This document shows positions 1-55,698 of a stretch of DNA of 64,000 bases, one piece after another (position 1 is the first letter of the stretch; every line of letters begins with the position of its first letter). The notes under the pieces were generated by a model, which did no database searches, was not told the origin of the DNA, and saw only the letters and a list, made by a program, of their open reading frames with translations. Source of the DNA: Escherichia coli (GTDB taxonomy: Bacteria; Pseudomonadota; Gammaproteobacteria; Enterobacterales; Enterobacteriaceae); assembly GCF_009931435.1 (NCBI RefSeq), contig NZ_CP043414.1, one strand, 5' to 3'. Position numbers and translations under genes: made by a program.

Positions 1-1
1 C

Positions 2-433
2 AGTGAAGGCATCATTAGCGAACCGGTCGGACAAATGGAATGGGATTTTGTCGTCAGCCCACTCCACCCACTGGCAGCGAAGCGGCATCCATTAGAAAAC
101 AGTGAATTGCGTCATTATCCAGCGGTTTGTATCCGCGATACCTCCGTTAACTTCCCCCCGATGCAAGCCTGGCTGTTGGAAGGACAAAAACCGATTTTTG
201 TTCCTGACTTCGCTACGGCAATCGCCTTAATAGAACAAAACGTCGGTATTGGTTATATTCCACATCATCTGGCATTGCCGTTATTGAACAGCGGTAAATT
301 GCTTAAAAAGCCAATGCGCGAACATAAACACGCCACCAAGTTATTTCTTGCCGCTCGTTCCGATGGTATGGGCAAAGCCTGTCAGTGGTGCATAGAATAT
401 TTAAGAAATCCGCAATTAATTTTCTGTTCCTGA
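2..433 (+). CDS. LysR-family transcriptional regulator, C-terminal effector-binding part (5' end lies outside window)
   Basis: Frame is open from window start (SEGIISEPVGQ precedes the listed M at 35). Translation has LysR substrate-binding-domain character (GIGYIPHHLALPLL). Identity of the regulator not recognised. Confidence 0.55.
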   Translation, partial: SEGIISEPVGQMEWDFVVSPLHPLAAKRHPLENSELRHYPAVCIRDTSVNFPPMQAWLLEGQKPIFVPDFATAIALIEQNVGIGYIPHHLALPLLNSGKLLKKPMREHKHATKLFLAARSDGMGKACQWCIEYLRNPQLIFCS

Positions 434-526
434 AGATCCACATCATACCTGGCATACATAGCAAAATGGCTTCCGGTGTTGGAAGCCATTATTGTGCTGC
501 AATTTACAATGACTCGTTAATACTCA

Positions 527-2788
527 TCATCCCCGACGCAAATTCTGCGCCGCCTGCACCATGTTCGCCAGTGCCGCGCGGGTTTCTGGCCAGCCGCGCG
601 TTTTCAAACCACAGTCCGGGTTAACCCACAGACGCTCTGCCGGAATGCGTTTTGCCGCTTTCTTCAGCAGGGACTCAATCCATTCCACGCTCGGTACGTT
701 TGGCGAGTGAATGTCATAGACGCCTGGACCAATTTCATTTGGATAATCAAACTCTTCAAACGACTCCAGCAACTCCATGTCGGAACGCGAGGTTTCGATT
801 GTGATGACGTCAGCATCCAGCGCCGCAATCGAATCCATGATGTCGTTGAACTCGCAGTAACACATGTGAGTGTGGATTTGCGTGTCATCTTTCGCTACGG
901 CAGCGTTGATACGGAAAGCCTCCACGCCCCACTGGAGATAGGCATCCCAGTCGCTGCGACGCAGTGGTAAACCTTCGCGCAATGCCGGTTCGTCAATCTG
1001 AATGATGCCAATTCCAGCGGCTTCCAGATCGGCCACTTCATCACGCAGCGCCAGCGCAATTTGTTTGGCGATGGTTTCACGGCTGACATCTTCACGCGGG
1101 AACGACCAGCAGAGAATGGTCACCGGGCCAGTCAGCATCCCTTTCACCGGTTTGTCGGTCAGCGATTGCGCATACTTTGCCCACTCCACGGTAATCGGTG
1201 CCGGGCGGCTAACGTCACCAATGACAATCGGCGGTTTCACGCAGCGGGAACCGTAGCTCTGTACCCAACCGTTTTGTGTAAAGACAAAACCGTCGAGGTG
1301 CTCACCAAAGTATTCCACCATGTCATTACGCTCGGCCTCACCATGCACCAGCACATCCAGACCCAGACGTTCCTGCTCAACAATGGCCTGCTTGATATGT
1401 TCTGCAATGCCCGTACGATAGTTGTTGGCGTCGAGATTACCCTTTTTGAAATCCAGACGCAGGGTACGGATTTCTGTGGTTTGCGGGAAAGAGCCAATCG
1501 TGGTGGTCGGCCACGCGGGCAGTTTAAAACGCGCACGCTGGGCTTCAGCACGCACTTCATAGACATTCGCACGCTGACTGTCCTGGGCGGTGATCGCCGC
1601 CAGACGCTTTTCTACTGCCGGATTATGTACACGAGTAGAGTGACGACGCGCCTGAATCGGTGCACTCCACTCTGCCAGAGCTGCCGTGTCACCACTGTTC
1701 AGCGCATCGCGCAGCAATGCCAGTTCATGGCATTTTTGCAGGGCGAAGGCAAACCAGCTTTTCACTTCTGCATCAAGACGCGTTTCCACGCTCAGGTCGA
1801 TAGGGCTGTGCAGCAATGAGCAGGAAGATGCCACCCACAAATCACGTTTGCCGACAATGTCCTTAATTTGCGCATATTTCTCGGTAAGATCGGCGCGCCA
1901 GACGTTACGACCATTGATAAGACCAGCAGATAGCAGCCAGTCAGAAGGCAGACGCTTGTGCAGTTCAGCAACGTCATCTTTACCATGTACGAGATCGACA
2001 TGCAGACCCTGAACAGGCAGCGCAGTAATGGTGTCGAGGTTTGGCGTTACGCCTTCAAAATAGGTAGTCAGCAGCAGTTTCACCTGGCCCTGGAGCGCGT
2101 CGTAAGCGGGTTTATAGGCGTCCAGCCACGCCTGCGGCAGTTCCAGCACCAGCGCGGGTTCGTCGATCTGTACCCACTCAATGCCACGTTTTGCCAGTTC
2201 TGCCAACACTTGCTGATAAACCGGCAGAATGTCGCTCAGCAGGCTCAGGCGATCAAACTGTTCACCTTTCACTTTACCCAGCCACAGGTAGGTAACCGGT
2301 CCCAGCAGCACGGGCTTGACCTTGTGGCCCAGCGCCAGCGCCTCGTCCACTTCCTCCAGCAGCTGCGTCCAGGTCAGTTTGAACTGTTGGCCTTTAACGA
2401 ACTCCGGCACCATGTAGTGATAGTTGGTGTTAAACCATTTGGTCATTTCCGCTGCCGCCGCAGGTTCGCCAGTCGGTGCACGTCCACGACCAATACGGAA
2501 CAGAGTGTCGATATCTACCGAACCATCTTTGTTCTGGTGACGCGCCGGAACGTTACCCAGCAGCAGACTGGTGGTCAGTACATGATCGTACCAGGCAAAA
2601 TCGCCCACCGGCAGCAGGTCGATACCCGCTTGCTTTTGTTGATCCCAGTGACGAGCACGCAGTTCACGCCCTACCGCCAGCAGTTCTTCACGCGTGGAGT
2701 TCCCCGCCCAATAACTCTCTTGCGCTTTTTTCAGCTCGCGACGCAGGCCAACGCGAGGGAAACCGAGGGTGTGATTCAATATTGTCAT
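527..2788 (-). CDS. metE: cobalamin-independent methionine synthase
   Basis: 753 aa ORF, N-terminus [23 protein letters not shown] matches MetE; ATG at 2788, TGA stop at 527. Confidence 0.97.
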
Positions 2789-3023
2789 TTTTCTTCCTCT
2801 AATTATATGTAAATCCTATGGATTTTGAATTTAGGGAAGGCGGCAAGTTTATTCATCCCCGGGAGCTTACTGAAGTAAGTGACCGGGGTGAAGAAACGCA
2901 GCCAACGCACCATAAATTTAAAAGACGAAGGATTTTAGCCGTCCAGATGTTTACACATCCATAATTGGCGGTTACTGTATATTCCTCAAGCGCAAATTAT
3001 TCATGCCGAAGTGAAGGACTTTC
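2789..3023. promoter_or_regulatory. metE-metR divergent control region (MetR and MetJ operator sites expected here)
   Basis: 235 bp between divergent metE and metR starts; contains ccgtccagatgtttacacatcc, resembling tandem met-box-like octamers. Site assignment is from known biology, not exact consensus matching. Confidence 0.5.
2830..2915. repeat. ERIC / IRU intergenic repeat element
   Basis: gggaaggcggcaag ... gggagcttactgaagtaagtgaccggggtgaag ... cgcagccaacgca matches the remembered ERIC core (AAGTAAGTGACTGGGGTGAGCG region and central palindrome). A second copy is near 54125-54192. Confidence 0.6.
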
Positions 3024-3977
3024 ATGATCGAAGTAAAACACCTGAAAACGCTACAAGCGTTGCGGAACTGCGGCTCACTCGCAGCCGCTGCGGCGACGTT
3101 GCATCAAACGCAATCCGCCCTGTCTCACCAGTTTAGCGATCTGGAACAACGCCTTGGCTTCCGGCTATTTGTGCGTAAAAGCCAGCCGCTTCGGTTTACA
3201 CCGCAGGGAGAAATCCTGTTGCAACTGGCGAATCAGGTGCTGCCGCAAATCAGCCAGGCACTGCAAGCCTGCAATGAACCGCAGCAGACGCGCCTGCGCA
3301 TTGCCATTGAGTGCCATAGCTGTATTCAGTGGCTGACGCCCGCGTTAGAAAATTTCCATAAGAACTGGCCGCAGGTGGAGATGGATTTTAAATCGGGCGT
3401 GACGTTTGACCCGCAGCCCGCGTTGCAGCAGGGTGAGCTGGATCTGGTGATGACCTCCGATATTCTGCCACGCAGTGGCCTGCATTATTCGCCGATGTTC
3501 GATTATGAAGTGCGTCTGGTGTTGGCACCTGACCATCCACTGGCGACAAAAACGCGAATCACGCCGGAAGATCTCGCCAGCGAGACGCTGTTAATTTATC
3601 CGGTGCAGCGTAGCCGACTGGATGTCTGGCGGCATTTTCTTCAGCCCGCAGGCGTTAGCCCGTCACTGAAAAGCGTCGATAACACCTTGTTGTTGATTCA
3701 GATGGTTGCCGCACGGATGGGCATCGCTGCGCTACCGCACTGGGTGGTGGAGAGTTTTGAACGCCAGGGTCTGGTGGTCACCAAAACCCTGGGCGAAGGC
3801 TTGTGGAGCCGACTGTACGCCGCCGTGCGCGATGGCGAGCAGCGTCAGCCGATTACAGAAGCGTTTATTCGCTCAGCGCGCAATCACGCCTGCGATCATC
3901 TGCCGTTTGTGAAGAGCGCGGAGCGACCCACTTACGATGCACCCACAGTGAGGCCAGGATCACCAGCGCGCCTGTAA
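3024..3977 (+). CDS. metR: LysR-family regulator of methionine biosynthesis
   Basis: 317 aa, N-terminus [36 protein letters not shown] (HTH of MetR); ATG at 3024. Confidence 0.95.
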
Positions 3978-4764
3978 TAAACGTTGGCCAGTGCGGCTGT
4001 TGGTGCCAGATAGCCAGGTTAACCAACAGCCCTGCCGGAACGTGCATATTATTCATAATGCCCAGCGTTCCGGCGTCCACCTGAGTCGCGCCGTAGTTCC
4101 ACATAAAGTAGCCAATCCCGGAGGCCACCACGCCAAGAAACACCAGAATGCCCCATTGCAGCGTGGTTTGCGGCATTTTCTGCGCATTTCCCAGCAAAAA
4201 CCATGCAATCACTGCCACCAGAAACGCGCCAAGATAGAACCACGCAAAGGCGTTATGCTGTGGCATCGGACGAGTTTCCATCAGGCGTTTGTAACCCACC
4301 ATGCCGATAGCAAAAGTGATATTGGAGAGTTGCACCAGCAGCAGGCCAGTCCAGAAGTGGTCGGTGACCTGATCATAGCGAATAATTCCGGCACCAATCA
4401 CCGCCAACAAGGCGCTAAAAGCATAGCCCCAGCGCAGACGGCGCTTACTCATGATGTCATAAATCAGCGTGATGTAGAGCGGCGTCAGTACGGTGAACAG
4501 CAACAGCTCGGAGACCGTCAGGTAGAGATAGGCGCGAAAACTCAGCATATACATCACGCCAAGCTGCATCGCGCCCACCAGCATATACAGACCGACCGTT
4601 TTCAGGCTATTGCCACGGGTACGCAGAAACGGCAGAAACACGAGTGCCGCCAGGCCAACGCGCACCAGCACTGCAAAATAGCTATCGACGTGCCCCGCAA
4701 GGTACTCGCCATAAAAGCTAAAGGAGAAGGCCCACAGAATCGTGGTGATGATAAGTAGCGCCAC
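3865..4764 (-). CDS. yigM: EamA/DMT-family inner membrane transporter (biotin transporter YigM/BioP)
   Basis: Highly hydrophobic ORF. Start trimmed to GTG at 4764 giving 299 aa beginning [15 protein letters not shown], which fits the remembered K-12 length. The 3' end overlaps the metR 3' end convergently. Confidence 0.85.
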
Positions 4765-4839
4765 AATGGAAAACTCTTTGATTAACGAGTATCCATTGTA
4801 GCGAAGTATCAGGTTGACAACTGGCCAAATAAAGAACAA

Positions 4840-5640
4840 TTACGATAAATAGAGTTTACGCAGATAATGCGGCACCGCATCGTCGGCATTAGTACCAATC
4901 ACTTCCAGCTCCGGATGCAGATCTTTCAGACGCTGGTGCGCACTGCCCATAATGCAGCCTTTACCTGCCATCGACAGCATTTCGGCGTCGTTCATCCCGT
5001 CACCAAAGGCAATACAATCTTTCAGACTGTAGCCCAGTTTCTTCGCCACCGCTTCCAGGGCATGGCCTTTTGAAACGCCGCCCGCCATCACTTCCAGACA
5101 AGTTAGGGTAGAGAAGCTGACGTTGACGCGATCGCCCCAACGAGCGTTGATTGCCTGTTCCAGCGGCAGCAGTTGTTCATGAGAATCACAGGTGAAGAAC
5201 ACTTTGCTGACGCCTTCCGGATCCAGTAATCCTGGCTCATACAGCGCATATTTGAACACCGCTTCTTTAAAAAAGCGCATCTCTTCCGGGCGGTGGCGAT
5301 TCATAAACCATTCGTCGTCGCGATAAACGTTAGTAATGATGTCCGGGTTGTCGTTGACCACGCCAAACAGATCGCTGGCAATGTCGCGATCCAGGTTATG
5401 AGCAAAAATCAGATTGCCATCCAGATCATGAACGCGCGCGCCATTGGAGGTAATCATGTAAGACTTAATCTCCAGATTATCGCGAATTTGCCCCACATCA
5501 ACGTGGTGGCGACCGGTCGCAAACACAAAGTTAATGCCGCGCGCGGTGAGGAGCTTCAGAGTTTCTTTGGCGTAAGGGGATAACGTATGGTCGGGAGAAA
5601 GTAACGTGCCATCTAAATCAGACGCAACAACCTGGTACAT
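4840..5640 (-). CDS. yigL: HAD-family sugar/pyridoxal phosphate phosphatase
   Basis: Start trimmed to ATG at 5640 (MYQVVASDLDGTLL, HAD motif DxDGT); 266 aa. The longer ORF upstream would run into pldB. Confidence 0.9.
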   Translation of the reverse strand: MYQVVASDLDGTLLSPDHTLSPYAKETLKLLTARGINFVFATGRHHVDVGQIRDNLEIKSYMITSNGARVHDLDGNLIFAHNLDRDIASDLFGVVNDNPDIITNVYRDDEWFMNRHRPEEMRFFKEAVFKYALYEPGLLDPEGVSKVFFTCDSHEQLLPLEQAINARWGDRVNVSFSTLTCLEVMAGGVSKGHALEAVAKKLGYSLKDCIAFGDGMNDAEMLSMAGKGCIMGSAHQRLKDLHPELEVIGTNADDAVPHYLRKLYLS

Positions 5641-5647
5641 AAGAAAT

Positions 5648-6670
5648 TTAAACCTCTGTAGAGCGGTTTCCGCTGGGTGAGTTATGCCTGTTGAAAAAAT
5701 CAACAATGGCGTGGAGCGCGACTGAGCGCATTGCGTCCTTTTCAAAAAGGATCTCATGGTACGCACCTTTAATTACCAGCGGTCGTCCCCCTTCGACAGG
5801 ATGGCCCGCAGCGGTGCGGAGTTCACAAAAACGGTCGTGCATGCGGTTATCCACCACGCGTTCCTCTTCAGCCTGCAAGAGAAGCGTTGGCGTGGCGTCA
5901 TCACCCGCACCGGCTAACACCTGTTCGCCAGCCAGAATACTTTCGCGTACCCAATGGTAGGTCGGCCCACCGACGCGAATCGTTGGGTCATCAGCATAGA
6001 AGCGTAAGTTACGTCGATATCGCTGTCTGCTGTGGGTCAGTACGTTGATAGCAAACGGCAACGCGCGCCAGCGCCCGGTGCCTATTGCATAGCCATCACG
6101 GAAACGTGGATGTGCTTCGGCCCAGTTAAGGAGCTGCCGCGCCATAAATGACGGCATACGAATCACGATCCCAAACATTGGCGCAGTTAGCGCAATGGCG
6201 TCACATACACCTGGATGGCGTTGCAGAAATAACGTGGAGATCGCACCGCCCATCGAATGTGCCAGTATATAGCGCTTACGCCACGGACCGGGCTGGACCT
6301 CCTGTTGCCAGAATGCCGCCAGATCATCAACATAATCATTAAAGCGATTAACATGCCCAAGATGCGGATCGGCTAACAGGCGACCGGAACGTCCCTGCCC
6401 GCGATGGTCGATGATTAAGACATCAAACCCCAAATGGAACAGGTCGTAGGCCAGTTCCGCATATTTTACGTAGCTCTCAATACGCCCCGGGCAGATGACT
6501 ATCACCCGGTCATGGTGCTGTGCGCGAAAACGGACAAAGCGCACCGGAATGTCATCTACACCAGTAAACTCTGCTTCATCACGCTGACGCCAGAAATCAG
6601 TCAGCGGTCCCATGGTAAAAGCAGCAAACGCGTTTTCTCTTGTTTCCCAGTCTTTTTGCTGCTGAAACAT
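5648..6670 (-). CDS. pldB: lysophospholipase L2
   Basis: 340 aa alpha/beta hydrolase with HSMGG nucleophile elbow; conserved position upstream of yigL. Confidence 0.93.
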   Translation of the reverse strand: MFQQQKDWETRENAFAAFTMGPLTDFWRQRDEAEFTGVDDIPVRFVRFRAQHHDRVIVICPGRIESYVKYAELAYDLFHLGFDVLIIDHRGQGRSGRLLADPHLGHVNRFNDYVDDLAAFWQQEVQPGPWRKRYILAHSMGGAISTLFLQRHPGVCDAIALTAPMFGIVIRMPSFMARQLLNWAEAHPRFRDGYAIGTGRWRALPFAINVLTHSRQRYRRNLRFYADDPTIRVGGPTYHWVRESILAGEQVLAGAGDDATPTLLLQAEEERVVDNRMHDRFCELRTAAGHPVEGGRPLVIKGAYHEILFEKDAMRSVALHAIVDFFNRHNSPSGNRSTEV

Positions 6671-31789: not shown

Positions 31790-31998
31790 ATAAAAAAACG
31801 CCTGCTCTTATTACGGAGCAGGCGTTAAAACAGGTCTGTATGACAACAAGTGGGTGCTTCACTCAACGTTGTGTCCATGGTGTCTGATGAGGCATAAGCG
31901 ACATCTGTCAGTGGACGATAAGCACCGTAAACGGCTCTGCGTCATTCCGGAGTTTATGAGGCACTAAGGCGAACATAAGAGATGGAATGAGCATCTAC
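31790..31998 (-). ncRNA. glmZ: GlmZ small regulatory RNA
   Basis: Minus strand reads GUAGAUGCUCAUUCCAUCUCUUAUGUUCGCCUUAGUGCC ... ending in hairpin AAGAGCAGGCGUUUUUUU, matching the remembered GlmZ sequence; located between hemY and aslA as in K-12. Confidence 0.8.
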
Positions 31999-52812: not shown

Positions 52813-54078
52813 ATGAGCAAAACACATTTAACAGAACAGAAGTTTTCCGACTTCGCCCTGCATCCGAAGGTTGTAGAAGCCCTTGAAAAAAAAGGGTTTC
52901 ATAACTGTACGCCCATTCAGGCACTGGCCCTTCCGCTGACGCTGGCGGGTCGTGACGTAGCCGGGCAGGCGCAAACCGGTACCGGGAAAACGATGGCGTT
53001 TCTTACGTCAACGTTTCATTATCTTCTCTCTCATCCCGCGATTGCCGATCGCAAGGTGAATCAGCCGCGTGCCTTAATTATGGCACCGACGCGTGAACTT
53101 GCCGTGCAGATCCACGCCGATGCGGAGCCACTGGCGCAAGCTACCGGCCTGAAGCTGGGTCTGGCTTACGGTGGTGATGGCTACGACAAACAGCTGAAAG
53201 TGCTGGAAAGCGGCGTTGACATACTGATTGGCACCACGGGTCGTTTAATTGACTACGCCAAGCAGAACCACATTAACCTCGGTGCCATTCAGGTGGTGGT
53301 ACTGGACGAAGCCGATCGCATGTACGATCTGGGCTTTATTAAAGATATACGCTGGCTGTTCCGCCGTATGCCGCCTGCAAACCAGCGCCTCAACATGCTG
53401 TTCTCCGCCACGCTTTCGTACCGGGTACGCGAACTGGCATTCGAGCAGATGAACAATGCCGAATATATTGAAGTGGAACCGGAACAGAAAACGGGCCACC
53501 GTATAAAAGAAGAGCTTTTCTACCCTTCTAACGAAGAAAAAATGCGTTTGCTGCAAACGCTGATTGAAGAAGAATGGCCAGACCGAGCGATTATTTTCGC
53601 CAACACCAAACATCGTTGTGAAGAGATCTGGGGCCACCTGGCGGCAGATGGTCATCGTGTCGGTTTGTTGACAGGCGATGTCGCGCAGAAAAAACGTCTG
53701 CGTATTCTTGATGAATTTACCCGTGGCGATCTGGATATTCTGGTTGCCACCGACGTTGCCGCGCGTGGTTTGCATATTCCGGCAGTGACGCACGTCTTTA
53801 ACTACGATTTACCCGATGACTGTGAAGATTACGTTCACCGTATTGGTCGTACAGGTCGCGCAGGCGCAAGCGGTCACTCTATCAGCCTGGCCTGTGAAGA
53901 GTATGCATTGAATTTGCCTGCTATTGAGACCTATATTGGTCACTCAATTCCGGTAAGCAAATACAATCCGGACGCATTGATGACCGATCTGCCAAAACCG
54001 CTGCGCCTCACACGCCCGCGTACAGGTAATGGTCCGCGTCGTACTGGCGCTCCGCGTAATCGTCGTCGTTCAGGTTAA
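52813..54078 (+). CDS. rhlB: ATP-dependent RNA helicase RhlB (degradosome component)
   Basis: 421 aa DEAD-box helicase: Q motif, [12 protein letters not shown] box (VLDEADRM), [13 protein letters not shown]. Confidence 0.96.
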
Positions 54079-54124
54079 ATAAAAAATGTCATACTCAAAA
54101 TCATTCAAACTGTATCAAGATGGC

Positions 54125-54192
54125 AAGAGAATTAATCCCAATGAGCTTACTGTAGTAAGTGATTCGGATGAAAGAACGCAGCCAACGCAGAG
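54125..54192. repeat. ERIC / IRU intergenic repeat element (second copy)
   Basis: atcccaatgagcttactgtagtaagtgattcggatgaaagaacgcagccaacgcag, roughly 85 % identical over about 55 nt to the copy at 2855-2910 and in the same orientation. Confidence 0.55.
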
Positions 54193-54213
54193 ACAGATTG
54201 AAGGATGAAGAGT

Positions 54214-55698
54214 ATGGGTTCCACCTCGTCATTATATGCAGCCATTGATCTCGGTTCGAATAGTTTTCATATGCTGGTTGTGCGCGAGGTGGCTGGAAGC
54301 ATCCAGACGCTGACGCGAATTAAACGCAAAGTGCGTCTGGCTGCTGGCCTGAACAGCGAAAATGCCCTGTCTAATGAAGCAATGGAGCGCGGTTGGCAAT
54401 GTTTGCGCCTGTTTGCTGAACGTCTGCAAGATATCCCTCCCTCACAAATTCGCGTTGTCGCTACGGCGACGTTACGCCTTGCCGTCAATGCCGGTGATTT
54501 TATTGCCAAAGCGCAGGAAATCCTCGGTTGTCCGGTACAAGTGATCAGCGGTGAAGAAGAAGCCCGCCTGATTTATCAGGGTGTTGCTCACACCACTGGC
54601 GGTGCCGATCAGCGCCTGGTGGTAGATATCGGCGGTGCCAGTACTGAACTGGTAACCGGTACTGGCGCACAAACCACCTCGTTGTTCAGCCTGTCGATGG
54701 GCTGCGTCACCTGGCTGGAACGCTATTTTGCCGATCGTAATCTGGGGCAGGAAAATTTTGATGCCGCAGAAAAAGCGGCACGCGAAGTGTTACGTCCGGT
54801 TGCCGATGAATTGCGGTATCACGGCTGGAAAGTATGCGTTGGTGCTTCCGGCACTGTGCAGGCCTTACAAGAAATCATGATGGCACAGGGGATGGATGAA
54901 CGGATTACCCTGGAAAAGTTGCAGCAACTGAAACAACGCGCCATTCATTGTGGTCGACTGGAGGAACTGGAGATCGACGGACTGACGCTGGAACGTGCGT
55001 TAGTGTTCCCGAGTGGTCTGGCGATCCTGATAGCCATTTTTACCGAACTGAATATTCAGTGTATGACCCTGGCTGGCGGTGCACTGCGTGAAGGCCTGGT
55101 CTACGGCATGTTGCATCTGGCCGTCGAGCAGGATATTCGCAGCCGTACACTGCGTAATATTCAACGCCGCTTTATGATCGATATTGATCAGGCTCAGCGA
55201 GTAGCCAAAGTTGCGGCTAACTTCTTCGATCAGGTGGAAAACGAATGGCATCTTGAAGCGATTAGCCGTGATTTGCTCATCAGCGCCTGTCAGCTTCATG
55301 AAATCGGTCTGAGCGTTGATTTCAAACAAGCGCCGCAACATGCTGCTTATCTGGTGCGTAATCTGGATCTTCCCGGTTTTACGCCTGCACAGAAAAAATT
55401 ACTGGCGACGCTACTACTCAACCAGACGAACCCAATAGATCTCTCCTCGTTGCATCAACAAAATGCCGTACCGCCACGCGTCGCAGAACAACTCTGCCGT
55501 TTACTACGCCTGGCCATCATTTTTGCCAGCCGTCGCCGTGACGATCTCGTGCCAGAGATGACATTAAAGGCCAACCATGAACTGTTGACCTTGACGCTTC
55601 CGCAAGGTTGGCTAACCCAACATCCGCTGGGTAAAGAGATTATTGATCAGGAAAGCCAGTGGCAAAGCTATGTTCACTGGCCGTTGGAAGTACATTAA
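54214..55698 (+). CDS. gppA: guanosine pentaphosphate phosphohydrolase / exopolyphosphatase
   Basis: Start trimmed to ATG at 54214 ([23 protein letters not shown]), Ppx/GppA family; 494 aa. Confidence 0.93.

Follow-up and report, generated by a model that had tools for sequence, protein, structure and literature searches.

The window analysed here, a stretch of 64,000 nucleotides from an Escherichia coli genome (contig NZ_CP043414.1), carries two full-length copies of ERIC (short for enterobacterial repetitive intergenic consensus), an element also known as IRU or RU-1. Copy A lies in the metE-metR intergenic region, in the 5' leader of metE, and copy B fills the spacer between rhlB and gppA. 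With moderate confidence, we explain both as full-length elements that reside inside host transcripts, where copy A would structure the metE leader and copy B would couple gppA to rhlB. The element class is already known, and these two copies are ordinary members of the family; what is added here are corrected boundaries, the transcript context, the dimorphism of the metE leader together with its constraint, and a reconstructed insertion at gppA with a conserved leader open reading frame (ORF).

Identity, extent and fold of the two ERIC copies

2810..2936, minus strand (as transcribed): ERIC copy A, 127 bp, at about +19 to +145 of the metE 5' untranslated region (UTR); placed by consensus alignment, hairpin and RNA 3' end
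2837..2909, minus strand: conserved core of copy A, corresponding to consensus positions 28-100
54090..54216, plus strand: ERIC copy B, 127 bp, filling the rhlB-gppA spacer in the same sense as both genes

The 127-nt E. coli ERIC consensus in Table 1a of Delihas 2007 (PMC2759123), which is the reverse complement of the Wilson & Sharp 2006 consensus, was used as the reference, and both copies align to its positions 1-127 without gaps. Copy A is identical to the consensus at 89/127 positions (61/73 in the core and 14/27 in each flank), and copy B at 95/127 (58/73 in the core, 19/27 and 18/27 in the flanks). The blastn E values are 5e-19 for copy A and 3e-25 for copy B, the corresponding nhmmer values are 3e-14 and 1e-15, and the local alignment scores are 86 and 94, some 30 standard deviations higher than the scores of shuffled spacers (15-16 +/- 2). 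In a pairwise alignment, the two regions share 78% column identity. An earlier note on this DNA had recognised two ERIC/IRU copies from a common central palindrome and a GCAGCCAACGCA tail, and the alignment bears this out, as it runs from end to end in both copies and not merely over the short palindrome. The intervals given there, 2830-2915 and 54125-54192, cover the conserved centre only, and the proposed length of 55-80 nt is wrong.

The window has exactly two occurrences of the core GAGCTTACTG(A/T)AGTAAGTGA, 2863-2882 and 54143-54162; each is on the plus strand and has the GCAGCCAACGCA tail 3' of it, and 100 dinucleotide shuffles yield no match with 3 mismatches allowed. The consensus alignment also agrees with the earlier note in giving the two copies one orientation, and the sense of the Wilson-Sharp consensus corresponds to the plus strand of the window. 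A search of the window with the consensus by blastn and nhmmer reveals no third or degenerate ERIC, the next-best matches being at chance level (blastn E at least 0.018). Beyond the window, the copy-A query matches at 7 places in the median E. coli genome and at no more than 12 in any, and related ERIC copies are present in Salmonella, Citrobacter, Kluyvera, Kosakonia and others.

In the predicted minimum-energy folds, positions 1-2 pair with 126-127 in all four combinations of strand and copy (z -4.5 to -8.1), in line with the stable hairpins that had been expected of these elements. The full-length hairpin of copy A has a predicted energy of -41.1 kcal/mol on the minus strand and -55.2 kcal/mol on the plus strand, and that of copy B has -35.7 kcal/mol (z = -4.5). 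Relative to the consensus, about 10 pairs in copy A and 6 in copy B are changed on both sides and still pair. The consensus itself folds at -61.8 kcal/mol in the orientation of the window's plus strand versus -45.2 kcal/mol in the opposite one, so that the element is read in its more stable orientation in the rhlB-gppA mRNA and in its less stable one in the metE mRNA. Every family feature that was tested is found, namely length, sequence, palindrome, a TA target (for copy B), a transcribed intergenic site and multiple copies. Both sequences are genuine full-length ERIC/IRU (RU-1) copies, which belong to the MITEs, a class of miniature transposable elements with inverted repeats.

Copy A in the metE leader

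527-2788, minus strand: metE, with its ATG at 2788-2786
3024-3977, plus strand: metR
2793..2800, minus strand: metE Shine-Dalgarno (SD) sequence AGAGGAAG of the ERIC-bearing leader type, read from the sequence
2833..2840, minus strand: CCUUCCCU motif in the ERIC 3' arm (mRNA sense), complementary to the metE SD
2852, minus strand: equivalent of a K-12 RNA 3' end (Term-seq), at the 3' foot of the ERIC central hairpin
2937..2960, no strand assigned: three tandem 8-bp Met-box-like repeats, AGCCGTCC AGATGTTT ACACATCC
2961..2989, minus strand: putative metE promoter, -35 TTGAGG (2989-2984), 17-nt spacer, -10 AATTAT (2966-2961), start at about 2954; from sequence inspection
2950..2978, plus strand: putative metR promoter, -35 TTTACA (2950-2955), 17-nt spacer, -10 TACTGT (2973-2978), start at about 2985; from sequence inspection

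A curated RNA 3' end of K-12 at NC_000913.3 position 4012988 (plus strand, metE sense), 65 nt upstream of the metE ATG, is present in the Term-seq tables that accompany Adams et al. 2021 (supplementary files 1 and 3 of PMC7815308) and maps to window position 2852. Because this end of a metE-sense RNA lies inside copy A, copy A is transcribed in the metE sense. The metE-metR intergenic regions of the window and of K-12 MG1655 differ by one substitution and one T in a T-run. The late position of the entry in both Term-seq files suggests that the growth condition was M63-glucose. The same tables (PMC7815308) contain an RNA 3' end at K-12 NC_000913.3 638796 (plus strand), 149 nt upstream of ahpC. 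The ahpC locus probably carries an ERIC, and if it does, RNA 3' ends at the hairpin foot could be a feature common to ERICs that lie in 5' leaders.

Of the spacer, the ERIC-less alleles described below have kept no more than the 87 bp at the right (2937-3023), and both divergent promoters must therefore lie within these 87 bp. The putative metE promoter is located inside this segment, which is common to ERIC-bearing and ERIC-less alleles, and it is missed by a stricter consensus scan. With a start at about 2954, metE would have a leader of approximately 166 nt, whose 5' end is in the likely MetJ operator and most of which is copy A, located just 3' of the start, and the putative metR start at about 2985 would place copy A outside the metR transcript. 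The earlier note had located this copy within a divergent promoter region and had considered a metR 5' UTR. The first claim holds insofar as the copy is in the metE-metR intergenic region, although it appears to lie downstream of the metE promoter; the second does not hold, as the K-12 RNA 3' end and the segment kept by the ERIC-less alleles assign the copy to the metE 5' UTR on the minus strand. These promoter assignments agree with the overlapping, divergent metE and metR promoters that the older Salmonella and E. coli literature reportedly describes. The Met-box consensus is AGACGTCT. Judged by their sequence, the repeats at 2937-2960, which abut the ERIC end and are kept in all allele classes, are likely to be a MetJ operator.

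The distribution of copy A was determined in a set of 5426 complete E. coli genomes, in which presence was called at a query coverage of at least 80%. A 1-kb query of the metE-metR region matches in 5425 of them. The comparison across strains proposed in the earlier note reveals copy A (155-nt element-spanning query) in only 2099 genomes, or about 39%, and the short, ERIC-less allele (85-nt junction query) in 3326, or about 61%. The two classes thus sum to 5425, and one genome has neither metE leader type. K-12 and O157:H7 carry copy A; JJ1887 and NS-NP030 have the short allele, and ATCC 25922 is without the ERIC-A allele. The ERIC-less metE leader is about 48 nt long. No raised divergence of the coding flanks was found between ERIC-bearing and ERIC-less E. 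coli alleles, and the allele-specific segment extends only from about metE codon 4 to position 2936.

In 80 species-representative genomes retrieved via MetR, the lengths of the metE-metR spacer fall into three classes.

Class i, spacer of about 115-123 bp, no ERIC: E. whittamii, most Enterobacter, Pseudocitrobacter, Trabulsiella
Class ii, spacer of about 228-236 bp, E. coli-type ERIC: the window, many Citrobacter, Enterobacter soli, some Kluyvera and Kosakonia
Class iii, spacer of about 245-249 bp, Salmonella-type ERIC with arms nearer to the consensus: Salmonella, C. werkmanii, one Lelliottia, some Kosakonia

More than one class occurs in each of Escherichia, Citrobacter, Enterobacter, Kluyvera, Lelliottia and Kosakonia. 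Removing 127 bp from the long allele does not simply give the short one, since the SD-proximal part of the leader differs too; the short leader resembles the 3' arm and flank of the E. coli-type ERIC allele, and the Salmonella-type allele has the appearance of a short-type leader that received an insertion. At copy A itself, the left end has a TA (2810-2811) and the right end a TT (2935-2936), and the ERIC-less allele does not represent a plain empty site. In Kluyvera, the ERIC-bearing alleles (L036/L049) and the ERIC-less ones (L054/L069) have the same SD-proximal end, GAGAGGCATATG, and the ERIC-bearing alleles of E. coli and Citrobacter have a different one, TAGAGGAAGAAAA. The long Kluyvera alleles with the SD region of the Kluyvera short type indicate recombination between leader types within the leader, and the mixed resemblances among the short, Salmonella-type and Kluyvera alleles indicate that the leader classes are mosaics. 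On balance, the ERIC-bearing leader is probably one of two long-lived alternative metE leaders.

Some orthologues are rearranged at the hairpin, with a 46-nt core deletion in L032 and a 14-nt tandem duplication in L061. One further ERIC-bearing sequence (CACSKA010000013.1) is labelled Chryseobacterium sp. 18061 and has a typical enterobacterial metE-metR locus with a MetR of 91% identity; this assembly is probably mislabelled or contaminated.

Where it is present, copy A changes slowly. The reference for the 148 nt of leader and ERIC was the set of four-fold degenerate sites that metE and metR have within their first 900 nt. Between the window and its seven closest Citrobacter sequences, which include C. 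braakii, C. youngae and C. gillenii of the C. freundii complex, leader and ERIC differ at 1-7 of 148 positions (0.7-4.7%), versus 36-45% at the four-fold sites; within Escherichia, the values are 0.7-1.4% versus 14-22%. The level of conservation is similar to that of the adjoining promoter/operator block. These rates point to strong constraint on the copy A sequence where it is present. The long hairpin is kept over 36 distinct orthologues, with 89.5% of cells paired versus 25-53% when the partners are slid. Additionally, 18 of the 45 pairs are changed on both sides, and the double changes amount to 121 cells versus 41 +/- 6 in shuffles.

In the predicted minimum-energy fold of the whole leader, the CCUUCCCU motif pairs with the metE SD, at -46.5 kcal/mol versus -41.1 kcal/mol for the ERIC hairpin alone. 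The predicted probability that the SD is unpaired is 0.15 in the window; three ERIC-bearing leaders have values of 0.15-0.33, and two ERIC-less ones have values of 0.47-0.65. Copy A may be an RNA structure, kept under constraint within the metE leader, by which translation or the fate of the mRNA is set: its central hairpin would mark a stable RNA 3' end, and its CCUUCC motif would pair with the metE SD as an alternative to closure of the outer ERIC stem.

An ORF of 36 codons through copy A (2913-2803, minus strand, with its stop 14 nt before the metE ATG) was considered as a counterpart of the leader ORF that is described for copy B in the next section. This candidate was rejected as a probably unconserved feature, as the frame is truncated or has no AUG in many orthologues. 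It is intact in the E. coli and Citrobacter type, and its K-12 version is named 'conserved hypothetical protein' on 125 contigs.

Copy B at the rhlB-gppA junction and other features of the window

52813-54078, plus strand: rhlB
54214-55698, plus strand: gppA from the annotated-type ATG, with a further in-frame ATG at 54205
54086..54208, plus strand: leader ORF of 40 codons, from the relic gppA ATG through the whole ERIC to the TGA at 54206-54208
54200..54216, plus strand: gppA translation start region, with the SD GAAGGA (54200-54205), the in-frame ATG (54205) and the annotated-type ATG (54214)

A 541-nt query of the rhlB-gppA spacer is covered to at least 80% in 5424 of the 5426 complete E. 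coli genomes, and one or two genomes are without a full spacer match. Such coverage is impossible without the 127 bp of the element, which indicates that copy B is fixed in E. coli. Outside this species, it is present in Salmonella and C. freundii; Citrobacter tructae has an rhlB-gppA spacer of 5 bp. Further filled and empty sites were obtained from a metagenome scan with the conserved 3' end of rhlB. The empty site reads ...TAA GAAAGTC ATG C(TA)AAT TCT ACC..., with the target in parentheses, and the filled site reads ...GTT ATG C-CA-(ERIC)-TG-AAT TCT ACC..., a net gain of 125 nt plus a 2-nt duplication; the left TA of the duplicated target is intact in allele L103. The comparison of empty and filled sites reveals that copy B entered the TA of gppA codon 2, at a formerly tight junction between rhlB and gppA. 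Copy B of the window diverges by about 5% from that of K-12 and by 13-20% from those of Citrobacter and Salmonella.

The insertion has replaced the start of gppA. The present ATG (54214) is located at the junction of the ERIC end and the duplicated TA, and the SD is in the ERIC right arm, so that both the SD and the start codon of gppA are ERIC or junction sequence. The earlier note had placed copy B in the gppA 5' UTR, which is correct as far as it goes but incomplete, as the copy fills the whole spacer and holds these start signals itself. The relic ATG (54086), 7 nt after the rhlB stop, opens a frame that runs through the element and ends in a stop codon that overlaps the in-frame gppA ATG at 54205 as ATGA, 5 nt before the annotated ATG.

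This leader ORF is open in 12/12 distinct copy-B alleles, including two that are highly diverged. Where these alleles differ in internal length, they do so by 45, 18 or 9 nt, each of which is divisible by three; the stop stays 5 nt from the start, and GGATGAAG.GTATG hardly varies. For comparison, only 26% of 38 copy-A orthologues, which serve as a control, have the corresponding frame open. Neutral simulations, which are simple and crude, leave the ORF open with a probability of 0.18-0.60 per lineage and, with the in-frame length changes included, of about 1e-3 jointly. The peptide itself is not conserved; that of allele L103 is unrelated to the others save for its length and the position of its stop. 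A frame that is kept open while its peptide is not conserved points to selection on translation and not on the product. The deletions of 45 nt (L090) and 18 nt (L101) are in the ERIC core and keep the frame, and these rearrangements, together with those seen at copy A, fit palindrome-driven deletion centred on the hairpin.

Over the copy-B alleles, 91.6% of pairs are kept overall. The outer stem is paired at 97.6% with 6 covarying pairs and the core at about 83%, and the core is deleted in two variants. In the outer stem, the SD and ATG of gppA pair with the stretch that directly follows the relic ATG. No promoter-like or terminator-like site was detected in a scan of the rhlB-gppA spacer, the sole promoter-like site being in rhlB coding DNA, and the Term-seq tables (PMC7815308) contain no curated K-12 RNA 3' end within this spacer. 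Copy B would thus be co-transcribed with rhlB and gppA. In the mechanism that we propose, the outer stem would bury the SD and ATG of gppA, ribosomes initiating at the relic ATG would translate the 40-codon ORF through the hairpin and stop at the ATGA beside the gppA start, and this translation would open the outer stem and thereby couple the translation of gppA to rhlB.

In GenBank, the exact 40-aa sequences of the ORF from K-12 and from Salmonella are called as genes on about 1000 or more contigs each under the name 'addiction module toxin RelE', and Shigella records are also found. RelE toxins have about 90 aa. A search of the ORF against Pfam and NCBIfam yields no family at E <= 1, RelE included, except for one chance match to an unrelated lyase domain. 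The RelE label was rejected, as there is no RelE/ParE profile match, and it looks like a propagated misannotation.

Elsewhere in the window, a scan with Rfam 15 detects six matches, which are listed below, and none over 2810-2936 or 54090-54216; the lack of an Rfam family at either ERIC copy says nothing against ERIC membership.

31792-31998, minus strand: GlmZ small RNA, gathering-threshold match, 218 bits
52653-52752, minus strand: TrxA 5' UTR thermometer, just upstream of rhlB, gathering-threshold match, 79 bits
35635-36068, minus strand: cluster of four tRNA genes, gathering-threshold matches

Over positions 1-6000 and 53880-54420, identity to the window is only 95-99% for most complete E. 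coli genomes and at least 99% for no more than a handful, the closest being a goat isolate (99.9%). At four-fold sites, the window diverges by about 0.2 from another 'E. coli' representative. A divergent Escherichia lineage is a possible source of the window.

Competing explanations and known systems

Several points weigh against the roles proposed for the two copies. The putative metE and metR promoters were assigned by sequence inspection and with the older literature as background, and copy A is missing from 61% of the E. coli genomes and from many genera. That the copy is nearly identical in Escherichia and some Citrobacter could stem from a recent transfer of the intergenic segment. Its pairing has no strand bias, with 40 G-U versus 58 A-C cells in the metE sense, and in the absence of a G-U excess the covariation cannot separate selection on RNA from maintenance of the palindrome in DNA; upkeep of the palindrome as DNA, such as by template-switch correction, accounts for it equally well. 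The pairing model for the metE SD draws on predicted energies. At copy B, the 12 alleles represent only about 4 independent lineages. The loss of three consensus stop codons in copy B was discounted as evidence of selection, as copy A of the window is also open in that frame. The small-ORF papers that were checked give no evidence that the leader ORF is translated, and the K-12 RefSeq record does not annotate it.

The most serious alternative, which we hold to be unlikely, is that both copies are inert fossils whose conservation results from hitch-hiking with regulatory DNA, recent recombination between species and self-correction of the palindrome. The absence of copy A from 3326 E. coli genomes and many genera, the symmetry of its pairing between strands, the fairly fast divergence of copy B and the patchy, mosaic allele classes, which fit recombination, would all be expected of fossils, and the reviews (PMC2229807, PMC3184786, PMC10969869) summarise ERIC function from Yersinia, with none shown in E. 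coli. However, copy A evolves 8-50 times more slowly than the neighbouring synonymous sites in several independent Citrobacter species, and the differences are graded and not all-or-none. Moreover, the ORF of copy B has stayed open despite three in-frame length changes and heavy divergence, whereas the orthologous frame of copy A is usually closed, and the outer stem of copy B is better conserved than the ERIC core.

A second alternative, which appears improbable, is that copy A works as DNA, whether as an extension of the MetJ operator, another protein site, a cruciform, a spacer or a second metE promoter. Copy A abuts the Met-box repeats at 2937, and its strand-symmetric complementarity fits a DNA palindrome. 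A near-consensus sigma-70-like site, TTCAAA-16-TATAAT (10/12), is also present at 2829-2802 (minus strand), in the 3' arm and flank of the element just upstream of the metE SD. However, a start from this site would fall within the metE SD, and the site is weaker in the Kluyvera and Enterobacter soli orthologues. By inspection, no operator-phased Met box reaches into the ERIC, and a metE-sense transcript has a defined 3' end at the copy A hairpin. That a functional small protein is made from the copy-B frame is very improbable, for although the frame is conserved as open and is called as a gene under the RelE name, it matches no Pfam or NCBIfam family and its unconserved peptide fits selection for the act of translation.

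The explanation that we favour therefore remains that of two ERICs inside host transcripts, a structured metE leader and a gppA start coupled to rhlB. The effects on expression, the transcription starts and the translation of the leader ORF are what we infer here, and the mechanisms proposed at metE and gppA are moderately supported. A more far-reaching version, which we put forward tentatively as a possibility, is that the host has taken over both elements: the metE copy as a long-lived leader polymorphism with anti-SD tuning, and the gppA copy as an insertion from which the gene was rescued by a start in the element's arm, with the displaced ATG driving a coupling ORF.

The metE product is among the most highly expressed biosynthetic enzymes of the cell. 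Thousands of sequenced E. coli differ in the presence of an ERIC at an otherwise near-identical metE locus, which provides a natural contrast for a costly enzyme. Because the metE-metR spacer is not uniform, regulatory results from ERIC-bearing K-12 may fail for the ERIC-less majority, including ST131-type strains. If the proposed reading is true, the metE copy is a long-lived regulatory polymorphism in a highly expressed gene that is common to enterobacterial genera. At gppA, the conserved ORF through the hairpin gives a specific and falsifiable prediction of translational coupling.

ERIC/IRU elements were reportedly described by Sharples and Lloyd in 1990, Hulton et al. in 1991 and Wilson and Sharp in 2006, the last of whom are said to have compared E. 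coli strains for the presence and absence of ERICs and may have listed these loci already. The roughly 39:61 split of the metE copy in E. coli, with both leader types common to several genera, and the landing in gppA codon 2, by which the copy came to supply the start region of the gene, are not found in the ERIC literature consulted, and the 2006 survey may cover part of this.

Both copies resemble the ERIC/IRU/RU-1 family as described (PMC2759123, PMC2229807, PMC3184786, PMC10969869) in their 127 bp, their 70-75% identity to the consensus, their terminal inverted repeats, their intergenic position in transcribed DNA (for copy B, putatively so) and their multicopy nature, and copy B also in its TA target. 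The best functional evidence for ERICs comes from Yersinia, and their role in E. coli is largely undefined according to the reviews (PMC2229807, PMC3184786, PMC10969869). As far as these reviews relate the work of De Gregorio et al. 2005, the Yersinia ERIC exposes an RNase E site in its right arm and destabilises the upstream cistron in an orientation-dependent manner. The one related observation here is the stable RNA 3' end at the foot of the copy-A hairpin. The present copies share with that system, as related there, a co-transcribed long hairpin, the importance of orientation and a proposed change of RNA conformation by ribosome movement. The effect described in Yersinia is on the decay of the upstream cistron's mRNA, whereas here the translation of downstream gppA and effects in the metE 5' leader are proposed.

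The intragenic RU-1 fusions of Delihas 2007 (PMC2759123) are similar to copy B in that an ERIC entered a coding sequence and an open frame is read through it. However, copy B is not part of GppA: the first codon was split off, a new start arose at the end of the element and a separate leader ORF was left. That paper (PMC2759123) mentions none of rhlB, gppA and metE. The switched intergenic regions of Thorpe et al. 2018 (PMC5890482) provide a parallel for copy A, as metE and metR are separated by alternative, partly non-homologous segments between near-identical coding flanks. In the present case, the variants differ by an ERIC and a different SD region, both occur across genera and only about 145 bp are affected. 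Horizontal regulatory transfer in bacteria has reportedly been treated by Oren et al. in 2014.

In translational coupling, an upstream ORF can unmask a structured downstream start site. The arrangement at gppA is similar, as the SD and ATG are buried in a predicted stem and an ORF through this stem ends in an ATGA overlap or a few nucleotides before the start. It differs in that the stem is the hairpin of a transposable element and that the ORF begins at the displaced original start codon of the gene, an arrangement that is known here from sequence.

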